Assembly (NCBI GenBank): GCA_022616665.1
Contig: JAKEFJ010000028.1
Span: 14,492-78,491 of the forward strand
Length of the DNA stretch: 64,000 nucleotides
Reading direction: 5' to 3'
DNA from: Acidobacteriota bacterium
GTDB lineage: Bacteria > Acidobacteriota > Polarisedimenticolia > Gp22-AA2 > AA152
Both the position numbers and the translations under genes were made by a program. This document shows, piece by piece, positions 1,823-36,016 of the stretch; the stretch's first letter is position 1; every line of letters starts with the position of its first letter. The notes beneath the pieces were generated by a model. It had not been told where the DNA came from. It saw nothing but the letters and a program-made list of their open reading frames with translations, and did no database searches.

Positions 1823-2964
1823 CGGGTTCGTGTGGGGTCTCTCGTGTCGGGAATCCGGCGGTGCATGGCCTTCCACTCCTCTGGCGGAATGGACAGGAAC
1901 ACTTCCACCACTTTGGGATCGAATTGGAGTCCGGAGTTCCGGACAATCTCCGCCCTCGCATCTTCATACCTGAGGGCTCTGCGGTAGGGTCGGTCCGAGG
2001 TCATCGCATCCAGCGTATCCACCACGGCGAAGATCCTGGCGCCCAGTGGAATTTCCTCTCTCTGCAGTCCCCGCGGGTAGCCGGACCCGTCGAACCGCTC
2101 CTGATGTGCGATCACGATGGGCAGAGATGGCTCCAAAAACTTGATTCCGGAGAGGATACGATAGCCAATTTCGGGGTGCCTTCGCATTTCTTCCCACTCT
2201 TCCGGCGTGAGTTTTCCAGGTTTGCGCAACACCGCGTCGGGGATGCCGATTTTGCCCACGTCGTGAAGCAGAGCTCCTCGTCGGATCTCCGTCAATTCTG
2301 GATCCTTCACTCCCATCCGCCGGGCAATGACCACCGTATATTCGGAGACGCGCATGGAATGGCCCTGGGTCTCAGTGTCCCGGGTATCCAGCGCTGCGGC
2401 AAGGGCCTCCAGAGTGGTTTCGTATGAGATTTGGAGCTTTTCGTAGAGCTCCTCGATCTCGCGGCGCTTGAGCACCAACTCCACGGTTCGTTCGGCAACC
2501 TTCGACTCCAGGTCACGCTGGTACTCCCGGTTCTCCAGGACCAGGCGCCTTTTTTCCAGCGCCTTTTCCACTGTCAGGCGCACTTCCTCCAGGTTGAAGG
2601 GCTTCGTCAAGTAATCATTGGCACCCATTCGCATCGCCCGCAATGCCACCTCTACGTCCACGACACCCGTGATCATCACCACCTCGACGTCCGGGTGCGC
2701 CTCTCTGACGTTTTTCAGGAGCCGGACTCCATCCATGGTGGGCATGTCGATGTCACTGAGAACCAGTGAGAATTGCTCTCGTCTCAGTAGATCCAGTGCC
2801 TCGTGTCCGTTCGAAGCCACGGCGCAATGGTATCCTTGTCCCTTGAGACCCTCGCACAGAAGGTCTCGAATGGCGGGCTCGTCGTCGACCACGAGGATTC
2901 CAGGGGGGACCCCCCAATCCAACGCGGACGGAGGGGCAGAGGGGTGACCCTTTTTGTCAGTCAC
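1819..2964 (-). CDS. Response regulator with HD-GYP phosphodiesterase domain (RpfG-like, c-di-GMP hydrolysis)
   Basis: REC domain (ILVVDDEPAIRDLL...DIDMPTMDG...TKPF) followed by an HD-GYP domain (HDVGKIGIP...HQERFDGSGYPRGL). The track ORF runs to 3216 and overlaps the polA 3' end. The start was trimmed to the GTG at 2962-2964, which has an AAGGAG Shine-Dalgarno upstream. Confidence 0.8.
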   Translation of the reverse strand: MTDKKGHPSAPPSALDWGVPPGILVVDDEPAIRDLLCEGLKGQGYHCAVASNGHEALDLLRREQFSLVLSDIDMPTMDGVRLLKNVREAHPDVEVVMITGVVDVEVALRAMRMGANDYLTKPFNLEEVRLTVEKALEKRRLVLENREYQRDLESKVAERTVELVLKRREIEELYEKLQISYETTLEALAAALDTRDTETQGHSMRVSEYTVVIARRMGVKDPELTEIRRGALLHDVGKIGIPDAVLRKPGKLTPEEWEEMRRHPEIGYRILSGIKFLEPSLPIVIAHQERFDGSGYPRGLQREEIPLGARIFAVVDTLDAMTSDRPYRRALRYEDARAEIVRNSGLQFDPKVVEVFLSIPPEEWKAMHRRIPDTRDPTRTR

Positions 2965-3073
2965 CTGAGACAAAGCGGCTCCTTTCAAAGGGCCGGGAAA
3001 GCGGCGCTCTGGATAATCTAGATCCGGCCCGGCCGGAGTCAATCGTTCTCTCGGCCTGGGGAGCGTCTTCTTT

Positions 3074-5782
3074 CTACTTTGTCTCAAGCCAACTGGCGCC
3101 CGAGCGGACCTCGGCCACCAGGGGCACGTCCAGCGGGTAGCATCCTTCCATGGACTCGCGCACCAGGATGGACGCCCGACCCACTTCGGCCTCGGGAGAC
3201 TCCAGCACCAGTTCATCGTGCACCTGAATCAAAAGGCGGCTGCGCAATGCCTCCCGCTTCAAGCGGGTGTCCAGCTGCACCATCGCCGCCTTGATCAGAT
3301 CGGCTGCGCTACCCTGCACCGTCGTGTTGACGGCCACCCGGATACCCTGGTTGCGCTGATTCATGTTCCGACTGCGAATCTCCGGCACCATGCGGATTCG
3401 CCCGAGAAGCGTGGAGACTTGGCCCTGGCGCTCGGCTGATTCGATCACCTGGTCCCGGTAGCGCCGCACACCCGGAAACCTCTGGAAGTACTCCTCGATG
3501 TACTGCTTGGCGGAGGCCAGCGACACCCCCAGTTCGCGGGAGAGACGAAACGGACCCATTCCGTAGAGAATGCCGAAATTGATGGTCTTTGCCTGATGTC
3601 TCATGGCGGGGGTGACGAGATCGGGCGCCACGCCGAAGATTTGCGCCGCTGTACGCTGATGAATGTCCTCGCCGTTTCGGAACGACCGAATCATCTCCTC
3701 ATCCTGAGTCAGATGCGCCAGAACTCGAAGCTCAATCTGAGAATAGTCTGCCGTCAGGATTCGCCATCCTTCCTGAGCGATGAAAGCCTTGCGAATCTGA
3801 CGTCCCTTCTCCGTTCGAATGGGAATGTTCTGGAGGTTCGGGTCACTGCTAGAGAGTCGGCCAGTGGCGGCCGTGGTTTGGTTGAAGGACGCGTGAACGC
3901 GGCCGGTTTCGGGGTTCACCAGACTCGGAAGGGACTCCACGTAGGTGGAAAGCAGCTTCCAGAGGCCGCGGTATTCCAGCACGGCAGCCGGAAGCGGATG
4001 AGAGGAGGCTAGGCCTTCCAGCACATCCACGCCGGTGGAGAACGACTTCTCCTTCTCGGTCTTCCGCCCTGGGGACAGGCCCAGTTTTTGGAAGAGAACC
4101 TGCCCGAGCTGTCGTGGAGACTGAATATTGAACTCCTCCCCGGCCAGGGCGTAGATTCTCACCTCAAGATCCTTCAGCTCCAGAGTCCACTGCTTCGACA
4201 GCTCGTTCAGAAATGGTGAATCGATCCGGACCCCCGTGAACTCCATCTCCGCCAGGATGGAGGTGAGGGGAAGCTCCAGCTCTCGGTAGAGTCGCTCGAG
4301 GCCATTTTTCCGTAGACGATCCTTCAAAGGCATCTCGAGCTCGAGAAGGCGTCGGCAGTCGAAGCAAGTTTTCTGTTCGCCGCCGCCCCCCATGGGAGGT
4401 GGGCCCCCGGTGGTCGCGGCAGTGGAGCTCCTCCCCAGAATGGAGGCTTCCAGTCTTTCCAGGCTGTAGTCCCTTCCCTCAGGGTCCAGCAAGTAGGCGA
4501 CGAGGGTGCTATCCAGATCGCCTCCCCGCAGTTTTTTCCCACGGCGCAGCAGGTATACCTCCAGCGACTTGAGATCGTCCGACAACTTTGAAATGGAAGG
4601 ATCCTGAAGAACGCTCTCCAATTCCTGGTGGATCTCTGCTTCCCCAAGGTCATCGGCTTGGCCTTGCGGCTCAACCTGCAAATCGGCGAAATGAACTGTC
4701 TCCGCCGATTCCCCCAAAGCCAGTCCCAACAGGCGTGCATGCATCGGCTCCGAGGCGGAGAACCAGGGGACGAGGGCCGCTTTTCTGTGGGCCAGGAGAG
4801 TCTGCCGGAACTCCTCCCATTCCCCCCTCTGTCGCAGGCGTTTTACGGGCATCGGGACGCCGAGCGGCACAGGTGCTTCTGACGCACCACTTTCCTGCGC
4901 CCCTCGCATTTCCTCCACGATTCGGTTGAATCCCAGGTCTGAAAAGAGCTGGCGCGCACGATCACCCTGCATCTCGCCTCTACGGAACTGGTCGGCCTGC
5001 CATGGCATCGGAACATCGCCGTGGATGGTCACCAACTCGCGGGATTTTCGAGCCTGATCGCCGTGCTTGAGGAGATTCTCTCGATAGGTTTTCCGAGATA
5101 TTTCCGAGGCATGCCGGAGGCACTCTTCCAGGCTGCCATAGGTCACCACGAGATCCCTCGCCCCCTTCTCGCCGATTCCGGGGACGCCGGGCACGTTGTC
5201 ACTCGAATCGCCCATCAGGGCCAGCACGTCGACCACCTGCTCCGGGTAAACCCCAAAGCTTCGCTTCACCCCTTCCCGATCCAGCAATTCGCCGCGCGAG
5301 GGGTGGAGAACCTGGACCGAGTCATTGACCAATTGAAGCAGGTCCTTGTCGGAAGACACGAGGACTACCCGGAAACCATCCTCCACCGCCTTGCGCGCCA
5401 AGGTGCCCATCAAATCGTCGGCCTCGAACCCGGCCATCTCGACCTGGGGAATCCCCAGGACGCGGCAGACTTCCTTGATGTCCGGGATTTGCTCGATCAA
5501 GTCCTCGGGAGGCGCCTGGCGATTGGCCTTGTAGGAGGGAAATGCGAGATGCCGATGAGTCGGTTCGGGACGATCGAAGGCTACGGCGATGAAGGTGGGC
5601 TTCTTGTCCTGAAGCAGTTTCCTGAGCATCTGCGTGAAGCCGAAGGTCGCATTGGTTGGACGGCCGGAGGGATCGCTCAGACCGCGGATGGCGTAGAAAG
5701 CGCGGAAAATGTTGGAAGTGCCGTCGACGAGATAGAGAACCCTTTCGGCGCCCTGCTCAGTCACGGGCCGCGGGACCCGCAT
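3074..5782 (-). CDS. polA: DNA polymerase I
   Basis: 5'-3' exonuclease N-terminus ([18 protein letters not shown]), 3'-5' exonuclease region, and polymerase motifs (RRxAKxINFGxxYG, VHDELVLE). The start is placed at the ATG 45 codons into the track ORF ([10 protein letters not shown]...), and the exact start is uncertain. Confidence 0.9.
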
Positions 5783-21268: not shown

Positions 21269-22195
21269 ATGCGCATGCGAGTCGCTCTCGCCCAGGTGGC
21301 TCCCATCCTGGGGAATGTGGGTGCCAACCTCCGGATGCACTGCAAGACGGCCCAGGCGGCGCATCGTCAAGGGGCCGACCTGGTGGTATTCCCGGAACTC
21401 AGCCTGACCGGATATCTCTTGCAGGACCTGGTTCCTGAGGTTGCTCTTCCCGCGCGGGGCTCCCCCGAAATCCGCGAGCTGCTGGTGCTCTCCCGCCGCA
21501 TCGGCTTGGTGGTGGGCCTGGTGGAGGAGTCGGCAGATCACCGTTACTACAACAGCGTTCTCTTCCTCTGGCGAGGGAGAATCCTCCACCGCCACCGCAA
21601 GGTCTACTTGCCAACCTACGGGATGTTTGACGAAGGGCGCGATTTCGCTGCCGGTGACAGCCTGAGAGCCTTCTCCACGCCCCTCGGCCGATTCGGGATT
21701 CTGATCTGCGAGGATGCCTGGCATCCCACCTCCGCTTATCTGCTGGGACTGGACGGCGCAGACTACCTCCTGATCGTCTCCAGCGGACCGAGCCGGGGAA
21801 TCGACGCCGGGAACGAGCCGGCAAGCCACGACACATGGCGGAATCTCTGCCGAGTGACCGCCCGGTATCAAACGGTCTATGTGGCGTACGTGAATCGCGT
21901 CGGGGTGGAAGACGGAATCCATTTTGGCGGCGGCTCCTGCGTGGTGGATCCCGAAGGACAAATCATTCGCCAGGCCCCCGCCTTGAAGGAGACGATCCTT
22001 CACGCGACGCTTTCCAGAGCGCCCTTGCGGAGGGCCCGCTTGGCTTATCCGCTGCGCCGCGATGAACGACCCGATCTCTTGCTAAAGGAGCTGACCCGAT
22101 TGACCGGGGAAGGGGGCGTTCCGGAGGCGGAGAGGCCGGGGAAGAACTCCGTTCCGAAGGTGCGACCGTTTTTTGCCCGGGGGCGACTGGGATGA
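21269..22195 (+). CDS. Carbon-nitrogen hydrolase (nitrilase superfamily)
   Basis: E-K-C triad context (VVFPELSLTGY... ILICEDAWHP). 308 aa. Confidence 0.8.
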   Translation: MRMRVALAQVAPILGNVGANLRMHCKTAQAAHRQGADLVVFPELSLTGYLLQDLVPEVALPARGSPEIRELLVLSRRIGLVVGLVEESADHRYYNSVLFLWRGRILHRHRKVYLPTYGMFDEGRDFAAGDSLRAFSTPLGRFGILICEDAWHPTSAYLLGLDGADYLLIVSSGPSRGIDAGNEPASHDTWRNLCRVTARYQTVYVAYVNRVGVEDGIHFGGGSCVVDPEGQIIRQAPALKETILHATLSRAPLRRARLAYPLRRDERPDLLLKELTRLTGEGGVPEAERPGKNSVPKVRPFFARGRLG

Positions 22196-23997
22196 GAATT
22201 CTGCTCGCCTATCGCTGCCAGTACGGCGGCCGCAACGATTTCTACACTCGCCAGATGCCGGTGGGGCTGGGGAGCATCAATGCGGTCCTGAGGACCGAGG
22301 GGCACGATGCCAGGCTGGCCAACTTCAGCCGCTCGACCTGGGAGGAGGTTCGGCGCACCCTGCGGCGATTCCGCCCGCGGATTCTGGGAATCTCCCTGTT
22401 CACCTTCAATCGTGGGGCGGTCCTGAGGCTGGCCCGTGTGGCTCGACAGATTGATCCGGGAATCTTCATCGTGGCCGGCGGCCCGCACGCAACTCATTTG
22501 GCGGAGCATGTCCTCTCCCATCACCCCAGCGTCAATGCCGTGGCCATCGGAGAGGGAGAGGAAACCATGCGGGATCTGGCGCGCGCCCTGGAGGCAGGAG
22601 AAGACCTCCGGCGGATAGCGGGGCTGGCGTTTCGGGAGGGTGGGAGGATCGTGCGAACTTCACCCCGCCCGGCGGTGAGCGATCTGGATCTTCTCCCCCA
22701 CCCTGCCGCCCATTATGAAAGTTTCGGCGTCGACCGCTTCGCACAGTTCGAATTCCTCATCACCTCGCGCGGATGTCCGGCCAGATGCACGTTCTGCTCC
22801 ACACCGGAGTTTTGGGGCACGCGGCTGCGGTACCGCAGCGTCGATCACGTGCTGGACGAATTGCGCTTCCTTCAGGAACGCTTCGGGCATACCACGGTCT
22901 CCTTTCGAGATGACACTTTCACGGTGGACAAGAAGCGCACCATCGAGCTTTGTCAGCGTATCCTCGCCTCGGGGCTGCACCTGCTGTGGGATTGCCAGTC
23001 CCGGGTGAACGCCATCGACGAAGAGAGGCTTCTCTGGATGCGCCGCGCCGGCTGCCAGCACATCCAGTATGGAGTCGAATCGGGCTCCCGCTCCATCCTC
23101 GACAAGCTCAACAAGGGAATTCAGCTGGAGCAGGTGATTCGCGCCTGTGCGCTGACGCGCAAAGTGGGGATGGACCTCTCTCTCTACCTCATCACTGGCG
23201 TTCAAGGGGAGAGCGAGGAGGACACTCAGGCAACGCTCCGGCTGATCCGGCGCGTGCGGCCCCACGACGGCATCGTCTCTCCCCTGGTGGTCTATCCTGG
23301 CACGGCGCTATACGAGGAGGCCAAGCAATTGCGGGGAGTGGACGACTCCGTCTGGGAGCGGTCTCGGATGGAGGGACTCCTGGTCAGGGACGATCCGGAG
23401 AGCATCCTGGCCTATCACCGGGTGGACTCGCTGTTGAAGGAGGTGGCCGTCTCCAGCGTCTACACACTGCAGGAGCGCCGGGAGCACAAGAGAGTCGTCG
23501 GAGAGTCTGTGGCACCTACGCTGTCGTGCGGTGAGACCTTGGAAGGTCTCGGAGATCGTTCCGGCGCCGAGGCCGAGTACCTCGAGCTCCTCGAGACTCA
23601 CCCCGGCAGCCTTTGGGGCCACCTGCGCCTGGGAAATCTTGCCGAGATGGCAGGCAACTCGTCCGCGGCGGCGGATCACTATCGCCAGGCCGTGGCTGCC
23701 GTGCCCCGCTACCACCTGGCGCACTCGCTTTTTGGCTCCGCTCTGCGCCGGATGGAAAAGCGGTCGGAAGCCCTTGCGGAGTTTCGCGCGGCCCTCAAAC
23801 TATATCCTAATGATCGCATCGCGCGGCGTGGTATGGCGCTGCTTCGGCGCGGCAGGGCTGCCGGAGCAAAGAGCTTTCCTTCCTTGCGCAAGAAGCCGAG
23901 CACCGGACTCACCGGCAGCTCCACGTGGCCTTCCTTCCTTCGGCACCCGATTCCGGACGGACAATCACGCCCCCCCGAGGCCGGATCCGGCGGATGA
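22192..23997 (+). CDS. B12-binding-domain radical SAM protein with C-terminal TPR repeats
   Basis: N-terminal B12-binding-like fold. CPARCTFC (CxxxCxxC) radical SAM cluster motif. C-terminal TPR-like helices. The ATGA overlap with the upstream hydrolase indicates translational coupling. Confidence 0.8.
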   Translation: MRILLAYRCQYGGRNDFYTRQMPVGLGSINAVLRTEGHDARLANFSRSTWEEVRRTLRRFRPRILGISLFTFNRGAVLRLARVARQIDPGIFIVAGGPHATHLAEHVLSHHPSVNAVAIGEGEETMRDLARALEAGEDLRRIAGLAFREGGRIVRTSPRPAVSDLDLLPHPAAHYESFGVDRFAQFEFLITSRGCPARCTFCSTPEFWGTRLRYRSVDHVLDELRFLQERFGHTTVSFRDDTFTVDKKRTIELCQRILASGLHLLWDCQSRVNAIDEERLLWMRRAGCQHIQYGVESGSRSILDKLNKGIQLEQVIRACALTRKVGMDLSLYLITGVQGESEEDTQATLRLIRRVRPHDGIVSPLVVYPGTALYEEAKQLRGVDDSVWERSRMEGLLVRDDPESILAYHRVDSLLKEVAVSSVYTLQERREHKRVVGESVAPTLSCGETLEGLGDRSGAEAEYLELLETHPGSLWGHLRLGNLAEMAGNSSAAADHYRQAVAAVPRYHLAHSLFGSALRRMEKRSEALAEFRAALKLYPNDRIARRGMALLRRGRAAGAKSFPSLRKKPSTGLTGSSTWPSFLRHPIPDGQSRPPEAGSGG

Positions 23998-26497: not shown

Positions 26498-26619
26498 TCG
26501 CCTCCTGCTCATCGGGTGCAAGGTCGCGGCGGCGGAGGTATACTGACCTGGTCGCGCCGTCCCCTCGTCGCGACGGCGCGGCCTACCGACAAGAGAGACG
26601 CTTCCTCAGGGAGGTGCCC

Positions 26620-28557
26620 ATGAACGGGCGTCATTCCAGGATCACCCGGCCCCTCATCCGCGACAACGGGTCTCTGAGGCCCGCCTCGTGGGACGAGGCG
26701 CTGGACCGGGCAGCGGAGGGATTCCGAAAGGCGGTTGATCGCTTGGGCGGGAGCGGCTTCGGGCTATTCAGCTGCTCCAAGGCCACCAACGAAGTGAACT
26801 ATCTTGCCCAGAAGTTTGCCCGGGCGGTCCTGCAGAGCAACAACATCGACAGCTGCAACCGTACGTGACACGCCCCCAGCGTCGTCGGTCTGGCGACGGT
26901 CTTCGGGGCAGGCGGTGGCACCAGTTCGTATCGTGAGGCGGAGGAGGCGGATGTCATCATCCTGTGGGGCTCCAATGCCCGGGAAACCCACCCTATCTTC
27001 TTTCACCATGTCTTGAAAGGGGTACATCGCGGAGCGCAGCTGTACGTGGTGGATCCGCGCCGCACCACGTCGGCCGCATGGGCTCACGGATGGCTGGGGC
27101 TGGACGTCGGCTCCGATATCGCCTTGGCGAATGCCATGGCGCGGGAGATTATCCAAGCGAATCTGCACCATCAGAAGTTCATCGCTTCCGCCACCACGGG
27201 GTTCGAGGAATTCCGCTCCGCTGTGGAGAGCTACACCCTGGAGGAGGGAGAGCGTCTTACCCGCGTTCCGGCATCTCTGATACGACAGCTGGCGCACGAG
27301 TATGCTCGCGCCGGAAAGGCCCAACTTTGCTGGACCCTGGGAATCACCGAACACCACAATGCGGTGGACAACGTGCTCGCTCTCATTAACCTGGCCCTCC
27401 TCACCGGCCACGTGGGGCGTTTCGGCTCTGGGGTGAATCCCTTGCGTGGTCAGAACAATGTCCAGGGAGGGGGTGACATGGGAGCCCTCCCAAACAAGCT
27501 GCCAGGATTCCAGGACGTGGAAGATGCCGCCCTGCGAGGCAAGTTCGAAAGGGCCTGGGGCGTCAGCATACCGGCGAAGAAAGGCTGGCACTTGACCGGG
27601 ATGTTCGAGGCCATGGAGCGTGGCGAGTTGTCGAGTCTCTACGTGATCGGTGAAAACCCCGCCCAGTCCGAAGCCGATGCTCGGCACGCCAACCACCTGC
27701 TGGAGAACCTCGAGCACCTGGTGGTGCAGGACCTCTTCCTGACGCGCACCGCCGAGATGGCCCACGTCGTCTTCCCTGCCGCCTCCTCCTGGAGTGAATC
27801 GGAGGGAACCGTGACCAGCAGCGAGCGCCGGGTCCAGCGCGTGAGAAAAGCGATGAACCCCCCTGGCGAGGCCAGGCAGGACCTGGAGATCCTCGTCGAG
27901 CTGGCCCGACATCTCGGGCACGACTGGGGCCGCCCCAGCGCCGAATCCACGTGGAATGAGCTGCGCTCCCTCTCTCCGATGCACGGCGGCATGGCTTACG
28001 GGAGGCTCGAGGAGATGGGAGGCATCCAGTGGCCCTGCCCCGACGAGAGCCATCCCGGGACGCAGTACCTGCATGCCCGGCTGTGGGCGGAGCCGGTGGA
28101 GGGCCCCAAAGCTCCCTTCAGTGTCGTCCGATTCGAGCCTCCGGTGGACGAGCTTACGGAGGAGTTTCCCATCCGCCTCACCACCGGGCGACGGCTCGAT
28201 TCGTTTAACACCGGCGTGCAGACCCGCGCGTTTTCTTCCCCGCTGCGCCGGGCAGAGACCCTGGATATCTCCCCAGAGGACGGCCGGCGCTACGACGTGG
28301 CGGAGGGAGAAGTGGTGCAGGTGGCATCAAGGCGGGGCCGGGTGCTCGCTCCGATCCGCTACGACGCAGGCCTTAGGCCGGGGCTCGCCTTCATGACCTT
28401 CCATTTCCCCGATCAGGTCGAGACCAATCTCCTCACCATCGAGGCGAACGATCCCAAGTCAGGCACCGCGGAATTCAAGGCTAGCGCCATCCGCATCGAC
28501 AAAGTCGCGGCGACCGCCGGCGCCATCCTGAAAGAGAAGGCATGGACATCCGCCTGA
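26620..28557 (+). CDS. Formate dehydrogenase catalytic (molybdopterin) subunit with selenocysteine encoded by in-frame TGA at 26866-26868; lacks the N-terminal Fe-S part
   Basis: Two same-frame track ORFs (26614-26868 and 27013-28557) separated only by a TGA. The context SCNRT-U-HAPSVVGLATVFG matches the FdhF Sec site (CARV-U-HGPSVAG). MopB and molybdopterin-binding domains follow. A SECIS-like hairpin lies 15-33 nt downstream of the UGA. Confidence 0.8.
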
Positions 28558-30353
28558 GTCCGGAACAACCCACTCCCGAGGAGCAGGACGCGGTCAATTC
28601 ACTCCTCGGTCCCGAAATCTCCTCCTCTGCGGAAAAATTGGGGCGCCATCGCCTGCTGCCTGCGCTCTGGGCGGTCCAGTCGCGGGTCGGCTGGGTGAGC
28701 GAAGGGGCGTTGAACTATGTCTGTCACCGGCTGGATGTTGCCCCCGCCGATGCTTACGGCGTGGCCAGCTTTTACCGGCTGCTCTCTTTGACACCCCGCC
28801 CACTCACTCTGGCTCACATCTGCGAAGATCTGGCTTGCCGGATGAAGGGGTCCGAAGACCTTTGCCAGGAGGTGGAGAAGCACCTGGGTCCATCCGCCCC
28901 CGCCCATCAGCCAGGAATGGCCCCCTGGCAGAAAAGCGCCTGTCTGGGACAGTGCGATCGTGCACCCGCCATTCTGGTGACCCGAAGCGGAAGAATCTCA
29001 CAGGATCTGATTTTGGGTGAGGCGGATTTGGCGCAGCTGCTCGCTACCCTCAGCGGGCGATCTCTCTCTCCCCCGCCGGCGGCAGCCAAGAGCATCCCGC
29101 AGCTGGGCGAGAAGGGCCTCAGACTTCTACGCCGGGTGGGACGGATCGACCCGACGAATCTCGTCGATTATCGAGCTCAGGGAGGCTACCGAGCCCTGGC
29201 GCGGGCGCTGCAGATAGGAAGCGAGGGGGTGATTCGCGAAGTGAGGGATTCGGGGCTTCTGGGGCGCGGAGGCGCTGCATTTCCCACGGCCAGGAAATGG
29301 GAGGCGGTGGCGAAGGCCCCGAGGCGCCCGCACTACCTGGTATGCAACGCCGACGAGTCGGAACCGGGCACGTTCAAGGATCGAGTCCTGCTGGAGGAGG
29401 ACCCCTTCAACCTGATCGAGGCGATGAGCATCGCCGCCTTCGCGACCGGATGCGAGCGCGGTTACGTTTACCTTCGTGGGGAATACCCCTTGGCCAAACA
29501 GCGGCTCGAAAACGCCATGGACCAGGCGCGAGCCGCCGGGTTGCTCGGAGAGCGGATCCTCTCTGCCGAGTGTTCCTTCGAGTTGGAGATCCGAAAAGGC
29601 GCCGGTGCCTATATTTGCGGCGAGGAGACGGCGCTATTCAACTCCATCGAGGGGTTTCGGGGTGAGCCTCGCAGCAAGCCCCCCTTCCCGGTTACCGCGG
29701 GGCTCTTCGGGATGCCCACCGTCATCAACAACGTGGAGACTTTTGCCAACATCCCCGACATCGTCCTGGACGGGGGCGCTGATTTCGCCTCGCGCGGGAC
29801 CAAGGATTCGACCGGAACGCGGCTCTTTTGCCTTTCCGGCAGCGTCCTGCAGCCGGGACTCTACGAAGTACCCCTGGGAACGACTCTCGGGGCTCTGCTC
29901 GAGAGGGCCGGCGGGGTTCCTGAGAATCGGTCGCTGCGCGGCATTCTCCTGGGAGGAGCCGCGGGGAGCTTTGTGGGACCGGGCGATTCGGGGCTTCCCC
30001 TTTCCTTTGAAGCCACCCGGGCTGCCGGCGCGACACTGGGCTCCGGCGCCGTCATGGTTTTCGACGACTCGGTGGATCTCAAGGACGTGCTCCTGCGCAT
30101 CGCCGCATTCTTTCGGGAAGAGTCGTGCGGGCAGTGCGTCCCTTGCCGGGTTGGAACGATCCGGCAGGAGGAGGCTCTGCAGCGGATTCTGAGTCGAGGC
30201 GCCGCTCCCGCGAGCCGGGAGGAATTGCTGGCGTTGTCGGAGATCGCCCAGGCCATGCGTGATGCTTCCATCTGCGGGCTGGGCCAGACGGCGGGAGCGG
30301 CCGTGCAGTCAGGCCTGACTCGCTTCGTGCTTCCAGCGGGAGGAGAGGAGTGA
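28542..30353 (+). CDS. NuoE-NuoF fusion (FdsG-FdsB-like): NAD(H)-binding FMN/Fe-S flavoprotein subunit of NAD-dependent formate dehydrogenase
   Basis: N-terminal thioredoxin-like 2Fe-2S NuoE region. NuoF core (GRGGAAFPT..KW, CNADESEPGTFKDR, ESCGQCVPCR). Confidence 0.85.
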   Translation: MDIRLSPEQPTPEEQDAVNSLLGPEISSSAEKLGRHRLLPALWAVQSRVGWVSEGALNYVCHRLDVAPADAYGVASFYRLLSLTPRPLTLAHICEDLACRMKGSEDLCQEVEKHLGPSAPAHQPGMAPWQKSACLGQCDRAPAILVTRSGRISQDLILGEADLAQLLATLSGRSLSPPPAAAKSIPQLGEKGLRLLRRVGRIDPTNLVDYRAQGGYRALARALQIGSEGVIREVRDSGLLGRGGAAFPTARKWEAVAKAPRRPHYLVCNADESEPGTFKDRVLLEEDPFNLIEAMSIAAFATGCERGYVYLRGEYPLAKQRLENAMDQARAAGLLGERILSAECSFELEIRKGAGAYICGEETALFNSIEGFRGEPRSKPPFPVTAGLFGMPTVINNVETFANIPDIVLDGGADFASRGTKDSTGTRLFCLSGSVLQPGLYEVPLGTTLGALLERAGGVPENRSLRGILLGGAAGSFVGPGDSGLPLSFEATRAAGATLGSGAVMVFDDSVDLKDVLLRIAAFFREESCGQCVPCRVGTIRQEEALQRILSRGAAPASREELLALSEIAQAMRDASICGLGQTAGAAVQSGLTRFVLPAGGEE

Positions 30354-31222
30354 GTTCGAGGAAGCCGGTTCAGAACGTGGAGATCACGATTGACGGCCAA
30401 CTCCGGCAGGTGCCGCAGGAAAGCACGTTGGTCCAGGCGTGTCAGGATGCCGGGATAGACGTCCCGACTCTTTGCTTCCTGCAGGGGATGACGCCGGCGA
30501 ACGCCTGCCGAATCTGCGTGGTGGAGCTGGAGGGCTCCCGGGTGCTGGTCCCCGCCTGCTCGCGACAGGTGGAGAGGGGAATGATCGTCCATACCGAAAG
30601 CGAGCGGGTGAGGCTGGCCCGGCGCCTGGTGATGGAATTCCTGGCCTCCTCGGTGGATCTTTCCCTCTCGGAGACGGCGCAGGAGTACGCGCGGCGCTAC
30701 GGGGCGCACCCCGAGCGCTTCGAGGCGGGGGTCGGGCCTCCTCCCGCCACCGTGGCGCAGAGCGTCAAGGTGGACAACGATCTGTACGTTCGCGACTTGT
30801 CGCGCTGCATCCTCTGTTACCGCTGTGTGGATGCGTGCGGGGAAGAAGCCCAGAACACGTTTGCCATCTCCGTGGCCGGGCGCGGATTCGACGCCCGCAT
30901 CGCTACCCAATTCGATCACCCCCTACCCGACTCCGCTTGTGTCTTCTGCGGTAATTGCATCGGTGTCTGCCCTACCGGCGCGCTCATGTTCAAGAGCGAG
31001 CACGACCTGCGCAAACAGGGAAGGTGGGACGAGTCCTCCCAGGCCCTGACCGAGACCATCTGCCCCTATTGCGGAGTGGGATGCGCTCTCACTCTGCACG
31101 TCCAGGACAATCGCATCGTGAAGGTCACCTCCCCCCCGGACAACTCCGTAACCCGGGGACACCTCTGCATCAAGGGTCGTTTCGGCTTTGAGTTTGTCCA
31201 GGAGTCGGAAGAGAAGTCCTGA
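30350..31222 (+). CDS. Fe-S N-terminal portion of formate dehydrogenase alpha / NuoG-like subunit (2Fe-2S + 4Fe-4S ferredoxin domains + first MopB 4Fe-4S motif)
   Basis: N-terminal plant-type 2Fe-2S ferredoxin domain, 4Fe-4S dicluster (CILCYRCVDAC, CVFCGNCIGVCP), then CPYCGVGCAL...LCIKGRFGFEF. This is the segment that precedes the catalytic domain in FdhF/FdsA. Confidence 0.8.
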   Translation: MSSRKPVQNVEITIDGQLRQVPQESTLVQACQDAGIDVPTLCFLQGMTPANACRICVVELEGSRVLVPACSRQVERGMIVHTESERVRLARRLVMEFLASSVDLSLSETAQEYARRYGAHPERFEAGVGPPPATVAQSVKVDNDLYVRDLSRCILCYRCVDACGEEAQNTFAISVAGRGFDARIATQFDHPLPDSACVFCGNCIGVCPTGALMFKSEHDLRKQGRWDESSQALTETICPYCGVGCALTLHVQDNRIVKVTSPPDNSVTRGHLCIKGRFGFEFVQESEEKS

Positions 31223-32053: not shown

Positions 32054-33571
32054 TCAGGAATGGTGGTCGCGGACGAAGACGAAAAAGCATGATCCAGACG
32101 AGCCGAAGAGCCCCTCTCTCTTGCCAGGAACCACGCCGGCGAGGTGGTACCCCTTGCCGCTCCACTGCTTGAGCAGGTCTTCAATCTGCTGGGCACCGTT
32201 CCCATCCAGCCTCTCCCCCTCTACCCGGACCACTCGAAAATCCGCTTTGGCGCGCTTCCCGGTGTTCGGGGAGGATGTGGAGATTTCTCTGACAGCGCCA
32301 GATTCGGTACCGACCGCCCCTTCCTTGTTTCCGGCGGGAGCCGGTCGCGAGGTCAACGAAGGACCGCCGGAGCTGGAACCCTTGGGAGCTTTCTCTTTCG
32401 CCAGTTTTCCCTCTGCCGGAGAATCCGTAATCACCGGCGCCACCTGGGCGACGGCCTCCAATGGCTCGCCGGCCGCGGGGTCTTTTTTGACTGCTGCCTG
32501 CTCCACGCCCGGCATTTTGAGAATGACGGTTTGCGCCCCCACTTCCGTTCCCATCCTCGCCCTTTCCTTGCCAATCTCGATCTCAAGATTCAGCTCCTCG
32601 GAGATCTGGACCGGCAGTGCGGCTTCCCGAGGCGTTGGATCCGGGGGAGTACGAGAGTGAACCACCTTGACGGGGGCCGCCGCCTGGATCTTTTCCTTGG
32701 GCTGCGCCGCGCGCACGGGAGGAGAACTGGGAGGCGTGATCTGCGGGCCATCCGAAGCGCCTGGAATCAGAGAGTCCCTGGCGGCGGATTTCTCGTTCTG
32801 CGCAGGCGCCTGGTACGGTAGGACCACTCCCAGGACCCGGAACGCGAAAAAAAGCTGGTAGACACGCAGGGTGGACAGCCCAGACTCCAACGCGGCCTGC
32901 TCCATGGTGGTCGGCTTCGCCTGCAACAAACTCAGGAGCTTTTTCTCTTCTCCCCCGAGGGTCACCTCGCGCAGCGCCTCTTGATGATCTTGGGATAGGC
33001 GGTACGGGAGCCTGATTTCCCCGGCCCCCTTGCGGAGAACCGACCATTTCTGCACCTGCCTGAGCCCAGACAGGAAAATCTCTGCGGTGGAGAGGCGCAG
33101 GGTGATGACCTCTCCCGAAGGGAACGGGCCCGCTTCGAACCGGTACATCCCCTCGGTCCAGGAGAAGAGAGAGAACAGGATCTCCTTCACTTGCTCCCGA
33201 ACCCATCGCGGCAGATCTTCGGCCGGGAGGATCCCCATCTCCACCAGCACCGTTCCCAAGCGCTTCCCCGGACCCACCTGGAGAGCGGCCTCCTCCAGTT
33301 GCCGACGATGGATCACCTCTCGGGTCAACAGCATTTCGCCGAGGCGATCGTCAGGATCTCTCGACGCAGCGAACACGATGTTCCCGCCCTGCAGATAGAC
33401 CGATTTTTCCGCGCCCCCGCCGGTGAGGCGGAGCGCGCCAGTCTCCCGGTTGCGGCAAAGCTCCGCCAGGATCTCGCAAAAACCGATTTCTGCCAGGTTT
33501 CCTTCGCGGGACGGGGAAGTCTCCAGGGTCGCCCTCCAAATGGGCGATGGAACCCCTTCGAAGAGTTCCAT
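32054..33571 (-). CDS. DUF4388 (PATAN-like) N-terminal domain protein with long Pro/Ala-rich linker and DUF4177-like C-terminus
   Basis: N-terminal GNLAEIGFCEILAELCRNRETGALRL matches the DUF4388 start. A low-complexity middle follows. C-terminal FRVVRVEG...GKGYHLAGVV. The start is uncertain (MELFEG...). Confidence 0.55.
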   Translation of the reverse strand: MELFEGVPSPIWRATLETSPSREGNLAEIGFCEILAELCRNRETGALRLTGGGAEKSVYLQGGNIVFAASRDPDDRLGEMLLTREVIHRRQLEEAALQVGPGKRLGTVLVEMGILPAEDLPRWVREQVKEILFSLFSWTEGMYRFEAGPFPSGEVITLRLSTAEIFLSGLRQVQKWSVLRKGAGEIRLPYRLSQDHQEALREVTLGGEEKKLLSLLQAKPTTMEQAALESGLSTLRVYQLFFAFRVLGVVLPYQAPAQNEKSAARDSLIPGASDGPQITPPSSPPVRAAQPKEKIQAAAPVKVVHSRTPPDPTPREAALPVQISEELNLEIEIGKERARMGTEVGAQTVILKMPGVEQAAVKKDPAAGEPLEAVAQVAPVITDSPAEGKLAKEKAPKGSSSGGPSLTSRPAPAGNKEGAVGTESGAVREISTSSPNTGKRAKADFRVVRVEGERLDGNGAQQIEDLLKQWSGKGYHLAGVVPGKREGLFGSSGSCFFVFVRDHHS

Positions 33572-33881
33572 CCGCGGGCAATATAGGTTCCAGGCGGGGG
33601 AAGTCAATCCTGGAATTCCCTCTAAGCCTCTGTCTTCCAAGGAATAGGGATGTCCGCTTCCGAATTGAACCGTCACTGGGAATGACCGAGAATGGCTTGA
33701 CGCCGTTCACTTCGGTCGCTAGAGTGCCCTGGAAAACAAATTCCGTGAAACGCCTTTTCGGCAGATGCAGGAGAGCCCCTAGCACAATGAACGAATCCTC
33801 ATCGAGCCACGCACGGGTGATCCTTCGCCTGCGGCCCGCCCGTTCCAGCTGCTGAATCATGCTGATTGACTGAGAGAGGTC

Positions 33882-35147
33882 TTGCAGACTGGAGACGCAT
33901 CTTTGAAACCGCTCCGCATCGCCATTCTGGGCGCCGGGCCAATTGGACTGGAAGCGGCCCTCTACGCCGCCACCCTCGGGCACGAAGTCACGGTGCTGGA
34001 GAAGGGGCGAGTTGGCGAGAATCTCACTCGGTGGGGACATGTCACTCTGTTTTCTCCCTGGAGGATGAACCACACGCCTCTGGGGAAGCGGGTGCTTGAA
34101 GGCACCGGGGTTCGGCACTGGCCAGCCGACGAATCCTATCAAACCGGCTTTGAACTGCTTCGCAGCTACCTTCTTCCCCTGTCGGTATCCCCTCCTCTTC
34201 GCAACCGCATCCTCGAACAGCACCAGGTACTCGCCATCGGGAAGGACCATTTGCTGAAGGGAGAGAAGATCGCCAATGCCTCGAGGCTCGATTCTCCCTT
34301 CCGAATCCTGGCTCGGAACCCCTCAGGCGAGAGACTCTTCCGGGCCGACAGGATCTTGGACACCACCGGAACTTATGGCTGCCCCAACCGGCTCGGGTCC
34401 GGGGGGATCCCCGCGACCGGGGAAACTGCCGCCCACGACAGGGTTTCCTATGAGCTGGACGACCCTTTGGGCCGCGACCGCGAGCGGTACGCCGGGAAAC
34501 GCACGCTCCTGGTGGGATGCGGTTATTCGGCCGCCACTTCCATGAAGGCGATGCGCCGGCTGGCAGAGGAAGCCACCGGGACGAGCGTGCTTTGGGTCAC
34601 CCGCAGCACCGAGAATCATCCCTACCCGATTCTGCTGGACGATCCGCTTCCAGGTCGCGCTGCCCTGGTCGAGGAGGCCAATCGCATCGCTTCCGGAGGG
34701 GCCGGCGGCATCCAGCGGCTTCCCGGACGGGAGGTCGAATCGATCCGGCCGCTTGAAGATGGATCTCTGGAGGTTCATCTCGGCTCTGCCAAAGGAGAAG
34801 AGCGCCACCTCGTGGACCGGATTCTTGCGAATGTGGGATACCAGCCGGACCGAGCGCTCTACGCGGAGCTGCAGATCCACGAGTGCTATGCCTCTTCCGG
34901 CCCCATGAAGCTTGCAGCCGCTCTGTTGTCTCAGGGGACCGCGGATTGCCTTTCCGTGGGCGGCCAGGGCGCCGAGGCCCTTCTCAATCCCGAGCCCGGC
35001 TTTTTCATTCTCGGATCCAAGAGCTACGGGAGGAACTCCACCTTCCTGCTCCGCGCCGGTTTCGAGCAAGTGAGAGACGCCTTCCGGCTCATCCAGGGCC
35101 GGAGCGACCTGGATCTTTTCGTTTCCACCGAGACCATTCCGGCATGA
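33882..35147 (+). CDS. FAD/NAD(P)-binding oxidoreductase (flavin monooxygenase / pyridine nucleotide-disulfide oxidoreductase-like)
   Basis: N-terminal dinucleotide-binding motif (RIAILGAGPIGLEAAL) and a second Rossmann motif (LLVGCGYSAATS). Confidence 0.7.
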   Translation: MQTGDASLKPLRIAILGAGPIGLEAALYAATLGHEVTVLEKGRVGENLTRWGHVTLFSPWRMNHTPLGKRVLEGTGVRHWPADESYQTGFELLRSYLLPLSVSPPLRNRILEQHQVLAIGKDHLLKGEKIANASRLDSPFRILARNPSGERLFRADRILDTTGTYGCPNRLGSGGIPATGETAAHDRVSYELDDPLGRDRERYAGKRTLLVGCGYSAATSMKAMRRLAEEATGTSVLWVTRSTENHPYPILLDDPLPGRAALVEEANRIASGGAGGIQRLPGREVESIRPLEDGSLEVHLGSAKGEERHLVDRILANVGYQPDRALYAELQIHECYASSGPMKLAAALLSQGTADCLSVGGQGAEALLNPEPGFFILGSKSYGRNSTFLLRAGFEQVRDAFRLIQGRSDLDLFVSTETIPA

Positions 35148-36016
35148 CCGAGAGCCAGCCCGAGAGCTTTCCCTCGGTTCCCCTGCTGGCACTGGACACC
35201 CTTTGGTTTCAGGTAGCGGGAACGGTTTGCAATCTGCGTTGCACCCATTGTTTTATCGCCTGCTCTCCCCACAACCATAGCCACGCCATGCTCACGCTTG
35301 AGACGGTGCGCCGCTACTTGAAAGAGGCGGAAGAGCTTGGGGTGCGGGAGTATTACTTCACGGGCGGGGAGCCCTTCATGAACCGCGAGATGCTCCCGAT
35401 TCTGGAGGAGACGCTTCAGCTGGGTCCGGCCACCGTCCTTACCAATGGGTTGCTTCTCGACCCCAGACGCTGCGCAAAGCTGAAGGCGCTGGAGCGCAGC
35501 TCCGAGTACTCCCTGGACGTGCGAATCAGCGTGGACGGGTGGGGGCCCGGGGATCATGATCGAATCCGTGGGATGGGGACCTTCAACCGCGCGATGATGG
35601 GAGTGCGTCGACTCTGGGAGGCGGGGCTGAATCCCGTTCTGACCGTCACCGAGCTGGCGGAGGGGGTTGCCTCTCCCTCGGGCCGGGAGCGCTTCATGGA
35701 ACAGCTTCGCTGCGTGGGAATCTCCAAGCCGCGCTTGAAAGTTCTCTCCCTGTTCCGGATGGGAGCCGAGGAGCGCCGGGAGCGAGGTTACCAGCCCTGG
35801 GAGCGCCTGGAACCGGGCACGACGGTGGATCCGGAGAAACTGCAGTGCGGGAGCGGCCGCATGGTCACCAGCCAGGGAGTCTACGTCTGTCCCATCCTGA
35901 TCGATTTCCCCACCGCGCGGATGGGCCAGACTCTCCGTGAAACGCTGCGGCCATTCCAGCTGGCCTATCCCGCCTGCTACACCTGCCATGTGCTGGGTGT
36001 GACTTGCCGAACATGA
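35144..36016 (+). CDS. Radical SAM protein with C-terminal SPASM/twitch-like Cys cluster
   Basis: CNLRCTHCF (CxxxCxxC). Glycine-rich SAM motif (YYFTGGEPF). C-terminal Cys set (C..13..C...CYTCHVLGVTC). The ATGA overlap with the upstream gene indicates coupling. Confidence 0.75.
   Translation: MTESQPESFPSVPLLALDTLWFQVAGTVCNLRCTHCFIACSPHNHSHAMLTLETVRRYLKEAEELGVREYYFTGGEPFMNREMLPILEETLQLGPATVLTNGLLLDPRRCAKLKALERSSEYSLDVRISVDGWGPGDHDRIRGMGTFNRAMMGVRRLWEAGLNPVLTVTELAEGVASPSGRERFMEQLRCVGISKPRLKVLSLFRMGAEERRERGYQPWERLEPGTTVDPEKLQCGSGRMVTSQGVYVCPILIDFPTARMGQTLRETLRPFQLAYPACYTCHVLGVTCRT

Follow-up and report, generated by a model that had tools for sequence, protein, structure and literature searches.

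The question raised by the locus described here, which lies within a 64,000-nucleotide (nt) stretch of contig JAKEFJ010000028.1 from an Acidobacteriota bacterium (hereafter the window), is whether three adjoining genes, which respectively specify a molybdopterin-binding catalytic protein, a flavoprotein and an iron–sulphur (Fe-S) protein, should be regarded as encoding a single enzyme. From the sequence evidence assembled below, this soil Acidobacteria operon is predicted to encode a nicotinamide adenine dinucleotide (NAD)-linked formate dehydrogenase containing selenocysteine (Sec), the large subunit of which is divided into two proteins. More specifically, the three genes very probably specify a single NAD(H)-linked Sec formate dehydrogenase of the cytoplasm, dependent on molybdenum or tungsten and belonging to the complex-I-related FdsABG/MeFDH1 kind, in which the alpha subunit has been fissioned and the resultant halves have exchanged places.

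Organisation of the operon

All three genes are on the + strand. The first (26620–28557; 645 codons including one UGA) encodes the catalytic molybdopterin (MopB) subunit, the second (28542–30353; 603 residues) a NuoE–NuoF fusion, or diaphorase, hereafter NuoEF, and the third (30350–31222; 290 residues) an Fe-S subunit that ends in the [4Fe-4S] domain of MopB proteins termed FS0. The open reading frames (ORFs) were located where the original prediction had placed them, and the order it had proposed, with the C-terminal part of the alpha subunit followed by the NuoE–NuoF fusion and then the N-terminal part, was borne out. So too were the overlapping junctions, measured as 16 nt (28542–28557) between the catalytic and NuoEF genes, and 4 nt (GTGA, 30350–30353, within which lies the NuoEF stop codon) between the NuoEF and Fe-S genes. 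The accompanying suggestion that the proteins are co-translated is better worded as translational coupling, and this is strongly conserved only between NuoEF and the Fe-S gene, where the 4-nt overlap recurs in 62 of 84 related loci; the junction between the catalytic and NuoEF genes is tight, with a gap of no more than 20 nt, in 44 of 67. The GTG at 26614 previously proposed as the start of the catalytic gene remains an alternative, although the ATG at 26620 is likelier, being preceded by the Shine–Dalgarno sequence GGGAGG and marking the Met from which homologues align.

The catalytic protein and its selenocysteine codon

From the ATG at 26620 to the stop codon at 28555–28557 the catalytic gene forms one frame, crossed by a single in-frame TGA (26866–26868, + strand) that would place Sec in the motif SCNRT-U-HAPSV. 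Pfam scanning of the resultant protein detected PF00384 (Molybdopterin, 1.5e-66) and PF01568 (Molydop_binding), and found neither PF04879 nor any other Fe-S domain. The protein consists of MopB domains I–IV with a Sec83–His84 pair, carries the U83-H84 and PLRGQNNVQG motifs, and equals the C-terminal ~70% of a canonical FdsA. Among NCBIfam models the highest score was recorded with TIGR01591 (Fdh-alpha; 648 bits, profile positions 51–672), the next MopB model being NasC with 416 bits. The best relatives in the PDB were FdhF of the hydrogen-dependent CO2 reductase (7QV7_S, 4e-152), Methanospirillum Fdh, E. coli FdhH (1AA6), FdsA and MeFDH1, and the alignments to 7QV7_S and 1AA6_A began at chain residues 62 and 61 respectively, past the FS0 domains of both. 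The MopB domain, the Sec-His pair, the TIGR01591 match and the PDB matches together represent the active-site features of a formate dehydrogenase, while the N-terminal FS0 domain carried on the MopB chain of FdhF/FDH-H is absent from the catalytic ORF.

Both features of a selenoprotein gene were present: a UGA in frame at the catalytic residue and, downstream of it, a hairpin. TGA occupied the aligned active-site codon in 66 of 67 related loci, and the sequences remained homologous on either side of it; the only locus in which it was not aligned, L005, is one of several with frame-broken matches, nearly all of them from the MFD series of metagenome-assembled genomes (MAGs). A hairpin resembling a selenocysteine insertion sequence (SECIS) is situated 14 nt 3' of the UGA (26872–26909, + strand; core stem 26880–26886/26892–26898, apical loop GGUCU at 26887–26891), and folding with RNAfold produced it both in the window and in most of the 37 related loci examined; the GGUCU loop never varied, and the stem changes between U-A, U-G and C-G preserve pairing. 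Neither a gathering-threshold scan of the whole window nor a permissive scan of 26500–27200 matched a SECIS or any other RNA family from Rfam, and the SECIS assignment therefore rests on folding, on conservation and on a resemblance to the SECIS element of E. coli fdhF.

The iron–sulphur protein and the position of the cut

The FS0 domain (PF04879) usually opens the MopB catalytic subunit. At this locus it was found instead at residues 234–284 of the 290-residue Fe-S protein (Molybdop_Fe4S4), preceded by a Fer2_4 [2Fe-2S] domain (PF13510) and PF22117 (Fer4_Nqo3, a 2x[4Fe-4S] domain of the Nqo3 type), so that the protein equals the N-terminal ~30% of a canonical FdsA: a HoxU-like module with one [2Fe-2S] and two [4Fe-4S] clusters, and then FS0. 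Its best structural match was to residues 24–303 of FdsA (6TG9_A, 2e-44), and it scored 146 bits with the NCBIfam HoxU model. In an alignment of 17 such Fe-S proteins, 16 Cys residues and Lys275 were invariant, and every sequence stopped 5–12 residues past the motif GRFG(W/F)xFV. As judged from this alignment, the 16 invariant Cys residues match the ligand requirement of one [2Fe-2S] and three [4Fe-4S] clusters. We take Lys275, in a C-x-K-G motif, to be the counterpart of Lys44, the bridging lysine of FdhH.

One cluster usual in enzymes of this type is missing. PF10588, the domain of the His-ligated [4Fe-4S] cluster, was not found in the Fe-S protein by the Pfam scan; the corresponding motif HX3CX2CX5C occurred in none of 117 split-type proteins as opposed to 15 of 24 fused relatives, and in the 17-sequence alignment a conserved FLASSVDLS segment stands in its place. 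By these motif counts, the split family has lost the His-ligated cluster, designated A4 in the formate dehydrogenase of Rhodobacter capsulatus (RcFDH).

Three sets of coordinates meet at the same point of division. Positions 1–52 of TIGR01591 correspond to residues 236–287 of the Fe-S protein, and positions 51–672 to residues 5–626 of the catalytic protein; residues 24–303 of R. capsulatus FdsA (6TG9) align to the Fe-S protein and residues 306–931 to the catalytic protein, the alignment to R. capsulatus Fds thus covering both halves; and in the fused homologue P0213, residues 12–287 of the Fe-S protein equal positions 9–280, and residues 7–628 of the catalytic protein positions 281–901. The claim that a Sec-type formate dehydrogenase alpha subunit is split after the segment LCIKGRFG was consequently upheld. 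On the aligned coordinates the two halves are exactly complementary: residue 7 of the catalytic protein follows directly on residue 287 of the Fe-S protein, with neither loss nor duplication, and the new termini created at the cut amount to only about three residues on the former and six on the latter.

In RcFDH the first 250 residues of the alpha subunit are HoxU-like, and the other 700, including the FS0 cluster A1, are FdhF-like (PMC7171172). Alignment to that subunit indicates that the cut is located some 50 residues past the seam between these two modules, which falls at about FdsA residue 250 (PMC7171172). The operon is therefore read not as an unfused ancestral pair of HoxU and FdhF but as the outcome of a secondary fission inside the FdhF module, and the proximal cluster together with Lys275 must, on the same reasoning, serve the pterin in trans. 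A clean split at a domain boundary had been predicted; this is correct for the boundary recognised by Pfam, but not for the evolutionary seam, which the cut follows by about 50 residues. Likewise, of the two comparators proposed, FdsA was appropriate, but E. coli FdhF lacks the [2Fe-2S] module, and the alpha subunit of MeFDH1 is the apt choice in its place.

Conservation and distribution of the divided layout

A search with the Fe-S protein yielded at least 8000 matches, and the best 120, when inspected, were all stand-alone proteins without PF00384, nearly all of ~280–330 residues. A corresponding scan of one genome per GTDB species confirmed more than 547 matches, of which the best 80 (L005–L084) spanned Acidobacteriota (Terriglobia, Bryobacterales, Thermoanaerobaculia), Chloroflexota, Eremiobacterota, Dormibacterota, Actinomycetota (Solirubrobacterales, Gaiellales, Thermoleophilia), Planctomycetota, Verrucomicrobiia, Binatia and Myxococcales; all 80 of these loci, and all named matches, came from MAGs. 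The order catalytic gene, NuoEF fusion, Fe-S gene was found in four independent metagenome contigs (L001–L003, from an Actinobacteria population, and L004, 650 kb in length), in each of which the catalytic gene had been called as two pieces because of the UGA, and tblastn recovered the same order on one strand in nearly all of L005–L084 with enough upstream DNA, the catalytic gene being adjacent in about 60 of the ~67 loci concerned. Exactly one FS0 domain was present per locus, at the C-terminus of the Fe-S protein, in 85 of 85 loci, and none of these 85 had a second FS0 domain upstream of the catalytic gene. Complete members of the family were 58–100% identical to the Fe-S protein of the window, as against no more than 46% for the nearest fused form, and the catalytic parts were 66–72% identical across phyla within the split family, as against no more than 45% to fused forms. 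By these comparisons of gene order and sequence, the layout is shared by dozens of species belonging to about nine phyla, and is a real enzyme architecture.

These data also bear on the possibility that the split is an artefact of assembly or sequencing, or a pseudogene in decay. The source is indeed a MAG, as is indicated by the label of a 100%-identical match (P0001), and gene callers break the catalytic gene at its UGA. Nevertheless, assemblies made independently from numerous samples and phyla, among them the closed chromosomes OZ242259 and OY970335, showed the same boundaries, order and overlaps, the cofactor ligands were invariant, and protein identity remained at 60–70% across phyla. 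Since the layout is conserved across dozens of species, chance or assembly error can be excluded, and the artefact is given a negligible probability. The rearrangement or misassembly that would have undone the original prediction is thus contradicted by the presence of the layout in ~60 other species-level genomes as well as in the independent metagenome contigs, and the search for the same split in related genomes that it had recommended gave a positive outcome. Its description of the arrangement as non-canonical is sound with regard to a split and reordered alpha subunit, but the arrangement is widespread and not peculiar to the source genome.

Some individual loci merit separate comment. 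Catalytic or NuoEF tblastn matches were split over frames in L005, L018, L026, L066, L068 and L076, nearly all of the MFD MAG series, and these breaks look like assembly indel errors and not biology. In the Chloroflexia loci L045, L042, L069, L070, L073, L074, L081 and L026, between 0.8 and 4.3 kb separate the catalytic gene from the NuoEF/Fe-S pair, with the order maintained; the insert of L045 holds a minus-strand gene for a subtilisin-like (S8) peptidase (2923–4836), and that of L042 an ORF of 143 residues with no assigned function (4129–4975). The operon was also recorded on two contigs from DPANN and candidate phyla radiation bins, L043 (DATLRQ010000161, labelled Micrarchaeaceae archaeon) and L067 (DATKQX010000050, labelled Saccharimonadales); both are most likely mis-binned, being 62–67% identical to the Acidobacteria protein.

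Matches of ~295–390 residues in a library clustered at 50% were considered as candidates for independent split lineages and rejected: P0257 and P0265 are fragments at contig ends, P0184 and P0155 are frameshifted, and P0200 is a fused form truncated at its own Sec codon. A different protein of that library, P0127 (1405 residues), is a single chain in which the Fe-S module and MopB domains occur twice in succession (residues 2–814 and 828–1401), a natural tandem duplication; its active-site position has neither Cys nor Sec in either copy, and it represents an FdhA/NuoG-like unit with 31–37% identity to the split family.

The NuoE–NuoF fusion and its likely partner

Pfam assigned NuoE (PF01257) to residues 35–148 of the fusion, NuoF (PF01512) to residues 234–405, an SLBB domain, and PF10589 to residues 515–595, and the protein scored 444 bits with the NCBIfam NuoF model TIGR01959. 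This domain content corresponds to a NuoE-type [2Fe-2S] module, a site for flavin mononucleotide (FMN) and NAD(H), and the NuoF [4Fe-4S] cluster, so that the features of both NuoE and NuoF are present in the one protein; the relevant motifs could be read from its translation as CX4C...CX3C in NuoE, GAGAYICGEETAL in NuoF, and ESCGQCVPC...ICGLG. No extra ferredoxin (Fer4) domains were found by Pfam. PDB matches included FdsB (6VW7_B, 6e-104, and 6TG9_B) and the beta subunit of MeFDH1 (7E5Z_B, 6e-87, NuoF part only).

The highest-ranking PDB matches of the fusion were nevertheless the B subunits of bifurcating enzymes (9BOV_B, 7T2R_B, 7Q4V_B and 8A6T_B, ~1e-112 to 1e-114), which raises the alternative of a flavin-based electron-bifurcating formate dehydrogenase of the Bfu/HydABC type, employing NAD+ and ferredoxin together. 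As is known from HydABC structures, bifurcating HydB/BfuB subunits are marked by two additional domains, a 2x[4Fe-4S] ferredoxin domain at the C-terminus and a [2Fe-2S] domain at the N-terminus. The fusion has neither, since it ends with PF10589 at residue 595 of 603, and the alignments in question cover only the NuoF core that all of these proteins share. The lack of extra ferredoxin domains argues against a Bfu-type enzyme, which is accordingly thought highly improbable.

Scarcely less improbable is a second alternative, according to which a HoxFU-like diaphorase composed of NuoEF and the Fe-S protein stands on its own and serves some other partner or partners, with the MopB protein as a mere neighbour or an interchangeable client. 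The two genes are a tightly coupled pair, as their 4-nt overlap testifies, in some Chloroflexia loci the catalytic gene is separated from them or missing from the nearest 7 kb, the Fe-S protein is recognised by the HoxU model, and NuoEF aligns to residues 189–541 of an NAD-reducing hydrogenase (5XF9_A). Against this, the Fe-S protein bears a MopB-specific FS0 domain that makes sense only beside a MopB protein without one, which is exactly what the catalytic protein is; the two are adjacent in the great majority of suitable loci, as reported above; and no hydrogenase or other catalytic genes were seen beside the operon in the window or in L001–L004. The suspicion that the 290-residue ORF might belong to an unrelated hydrogenase or NuoG-like complex can be set aside on the same grounds, the only FS0 domain of each locus being the piece that the catalytic ORF lacks.

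The reading of the three genes as one formate dehydrogenase has, in turn, to accommodate several observations that weigh against it. The catalytic protein falls below the TIGR01591 cut-off (648.2 against 666.25 bits), a shortfall that arises because the first 50 profile positions sit on the Fe-S protein, where they contribute 55.8 bits; adding the scores of both proteins gives ~704 bits, although this is only a rough sum. ARAGORN detected no tRNA gene in the window, and hence none for tRNA-Sec, and selA, selB, selD and mobA were not searched for; nor was fdhD, the gene of a formate-dehydrogenase-specific maturation protein, found in the window, whereas it occurs within the flanks of 34 of 84 loci. 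The AlphaFold2 model of the Fe-S protein generated from the 17-sequence alignment was too poor for a fold search (predicted local distance difference test 54.8, predicted template modelling score 0.45), and solved structures aligned by sequence were relied on instead. Several Chloroflexia loci have the catalytic gene unlinked from the other two, so that operon coupling is not obligatory. In L012, L038 and L076, which have NuoEF and an FS0-bearing Fe-S gene, no catalytic MopB gene was detected in the 7 kb upstream; nor was one detected downstream in the two of these loci whose 7-kb downstream flank is complete (L012 and L076), and the FS0-less partner in all three genomes must be encoded elsewhere. 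Finally, the catalytic part could be of mosaic origin, because it resembles FdhF-type proteins slightly more than FdsA.

Formate–tetrahydrofolate ligase adjoins the operon in L001–L003, and this gene, like the fdhD of the 34 loci, speaks for an identity as formate dehydrogenase. In L001 (548–3156, 8035–8496) the operon stands beside that gene, a GCV_T-family gene, fdhD and a MobA-like NTP_transf_3 gene, and these neighbours hint at a tie to folate-dependent one-carbon or glycine metabolism that is missing from the Acidobacteria window.

Proposed electron path and origin

In the mechanism proposed for this enzyme, formate would be oxidised at a Sec-ligated molybdenum or tungsten centre coordinated by bis-molybdopterin guanine dinucleotide (bis-MGD) in the 645-residue catalytic protein. 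Electrons would exit through the pterin to the FS0 [4Fe-4S] cluster, which is carried with Lys275 on the last 55 residues of the 290-residue protein and would dock in trans at the place where it is normally covalently attached, and would then pass from FS0 via two [4Fe-4S] clusters, the [2Fe-2S] cluster and the NuoF [4Fe-4S] cluster to FMN and NAD+. The result would be a heterotrimeric formate:NAD+ oxidoreductase, reversible in principle, the reverse direction being CO2 reduction. The physical assembly, activity, NAD specificity, metal and physiological direction of such a complex are properties that we infer from the proteins encoded.

The order NuoE–NuoF–alpha is presumed to be ancestral. 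A tandem duplication may have given [EF][N.C][EF][N.C], from which [C][EF][N] would remain once the outer pieces were lost, which would be the route of permutation by duplication applied to an operon. The passage from NuoEF to the Fe-S part retains both the ancestral order of fdsGBA and hoxFU and the tight coupling, the sole displacement being that of the catalytic piece, which now stands first. The identity gap between split members and fused forms points to a single origin, in which one fission event would have been followed by horizontal spread.

Whether the exchanged order might be of benefit is a more speculative matter. The UGA is at codon 83 of the first gene, as compared with about codon 375 of a 900-codon gene were the two parts fused. 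Failed Sec insertion might therefore waste only an 82-residue peptide, with no cofactor-laden Fe-S fragment to poison the diaphorase, while at loci with tight junctions, as in the window with its overlaps of 16 and 4 nt, translation of NuoEF and the Fe-S protein might be coupled to UGA read-through, and selenium supply might gate expression of the whole complex. That the swapped order is adaptive for a selenoprotein, and that FS0 in trans defines a kind of detachable catalytic module not recognised before among MopB enzymes, is judged rather unlikely.

Significance and surroundings of the locus

The literature searched described only unsplit enzymes, and no account of the split and reordered architecture was found in it, which is not proof of absence. 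A 2026 review names MeFDH1, CnFdsDABG and RcFdsABGD as the only NAD-dependent formate dehydrogenases studied in detail, both Fds enzymes being Cys-Mo enzymes in which the catalytic FdsA is a single subunit (PMC13397495). NAD-linked metal formate dehydrogenases are studied intensively for CO2 reduction, and the split family offers a different build: a 645-residue Sec catalytic module without an Fe-S cluster would work with a separate subunit serving as the wire, so that the step from pterin to FS0 would cross a protein interface. The family constitutes a natural experiment on the modularity of enzymes related to complex I, and a simpler catalytic module for engineering. What is described is a widespread and overlooked subunit architecture with a trans-acting FS0 domain; the chemistry itself is not exotic.

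Among the soil phyla that are dominant and for the most part uncultured (Acidobacteriota, Chloroflexota, Eremiobacterota, Dormibacterota and Thermoleophilia), the split enzyme seems to be the common formate dehydrogenase of the cytoplasm. Public annotation of its pieces is generic ("2Fe-2S iron-sulfur cluster-binding protein", "YjgC"), and since gene callers deliver four generically named pieces the operon is easily missed or miscounted in metabolic surveys.

The neighbours of the operon in the window are functionally unrelated to it. A beta-eliminating lyase gene is situated upstream, and a convergent FAH-family gene begins one base past the last stop codon; other products encoded include a CN-hydrolase, an RluD-like protein, a radical-SAM protein with an N-terminal B12-binding domain and C-terminal tetratricopeptide repeats (22192–23997, + strand), a DUF4388 protein (32054–33676, − strand), and a radical-SAM protein with a Fer4_12 domain (34883–36016, + strand). 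The longest ORF for the last of these overlaps the preceding ORF, which resembles an FAD/NAD oxidoreductase (33882–35147), by ~265 nt, and the true start of the gene is therefore probably later. Neither tRNA or transfer-messenger RNA genes (ARAGORN) nor Rfam families at the gathering threshold were found anywhere in the 64-kb window.

Comparison with known systems

We take the beta subunit of MeFDH1 (7E5Z_B) to be a NuoE–NuoF fusion like that of the window, so that a fused beta subunit would already be known from that enzyme. MeFDH1 (FoDH1) of Methylorubrum extorquens, a tungsten enzyme composed of Fdh1A and Fdh1B (PDB 7E5Z, 7VW6, 8J83), is likewise a cytoplasmic NAD-linked metal formate dehydrogenase; its beta subunit has been described as similar to Nqo1/2, and its alpha subunit as HoxU-like over residues 1–289 with an FdhF-like C-terminus (PMC10869683). 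The Fe-S protein of the window aligns to residues 71–341 of that alpha subunit (4e-40) and the catalytic protein to residues 372–982 (3e-125). However, the MeFDH1 alpha subunit is one Cys-ligated chain of 989 residues, whereas in the window it is represented by two proteins, cut after FS0 and in swapped order, and the window family has Sec and no His-ligated cluster.

The FdsABG(D) enzymes of R. capsulatus and Cupriavidus necator (PDB 6TG9, 6TGA, 6VW7) share with the proposed enzyme an expected path through bis-MGD, A1 (FS0), A2, A3, the [2Fe-2S] cluster, the FdsB [4Fe-4S] cluster and FMN, and FdsA matches both the Fe-S protein (residues 24–303, 2e-44) and the catalytic protein (residues 306–931, 1e-127). 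The gene order fdsGBACD preserves the ancestral arrangement NuoE–NuoF–alpha (PMC7171172). In contrast to the window operon, the Fds enzymes have FdsG unfused from FdsB, and an FdsA that forms a single chain of 958 residues in a Cys-Mo enzyme; Fds possesses A4 (His117, Cys121, Cys124, Cys130), a cluster at the interface of the dimer that lies outside the main electron path and that the window family lacks, and an FdsD subunit, whereas no FdsD-like gene was seen in the window operon. The split formate dehydrogenase thus departs from the FdsA type in two defining features, the single alpha chain, here divided between ORFs 30350–31222 and 26620–28557, and the His-ligated cluster, and judging by its sequence should otherwise work alike.

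The HoxFU diaphorase, as exemplified by the NAD+-reducing [NiFe] hydrogenase of Hydrogenophilus thermoluteolus (PDB 5XF9), also combines a large NADH-binding flavoprotein (5XF9_A, 591 residues) with a separate HoxU-type Fe-S protein serving a separate catalytic subunit, and HoxF itself is a fusion of NuoE-like and NuoF-like parts. Unlike the Fe-S protein of the window, HoxU (238 residues) lacks an FS0 domain and works with a [NiFe] hydrogenase as its catalytic partner; the HoxU-like protein of the window has a MopB FS0 domain appended, and its partner would be a Sec-formate dehydrogenase. The Bfu/HydABC enzymes, such as HylABC-FdhF2, differ in that HydB carries the additional C-terminal 2x[4Fe-4S] and N-terminal [2Fe-2S] domains with HydC as a separate protein, whereas the window fusion has no Fer4 domain and incorporates NuoE.

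A natural precedent for fission is provided by FwdB/FwdD of formylmethanofuran dehydrogenase, in which a formate-dehydrogenase-like MopB unit works as two polypeptides. There, however, it is the C-terminal domain IV that has been removed and FS0 stays on the catalytic chain, whereas in the window it is the N-terminal FS0 domain that has been removed, and we know of no described MopB enzyme in which FS0 is supplied in trans.

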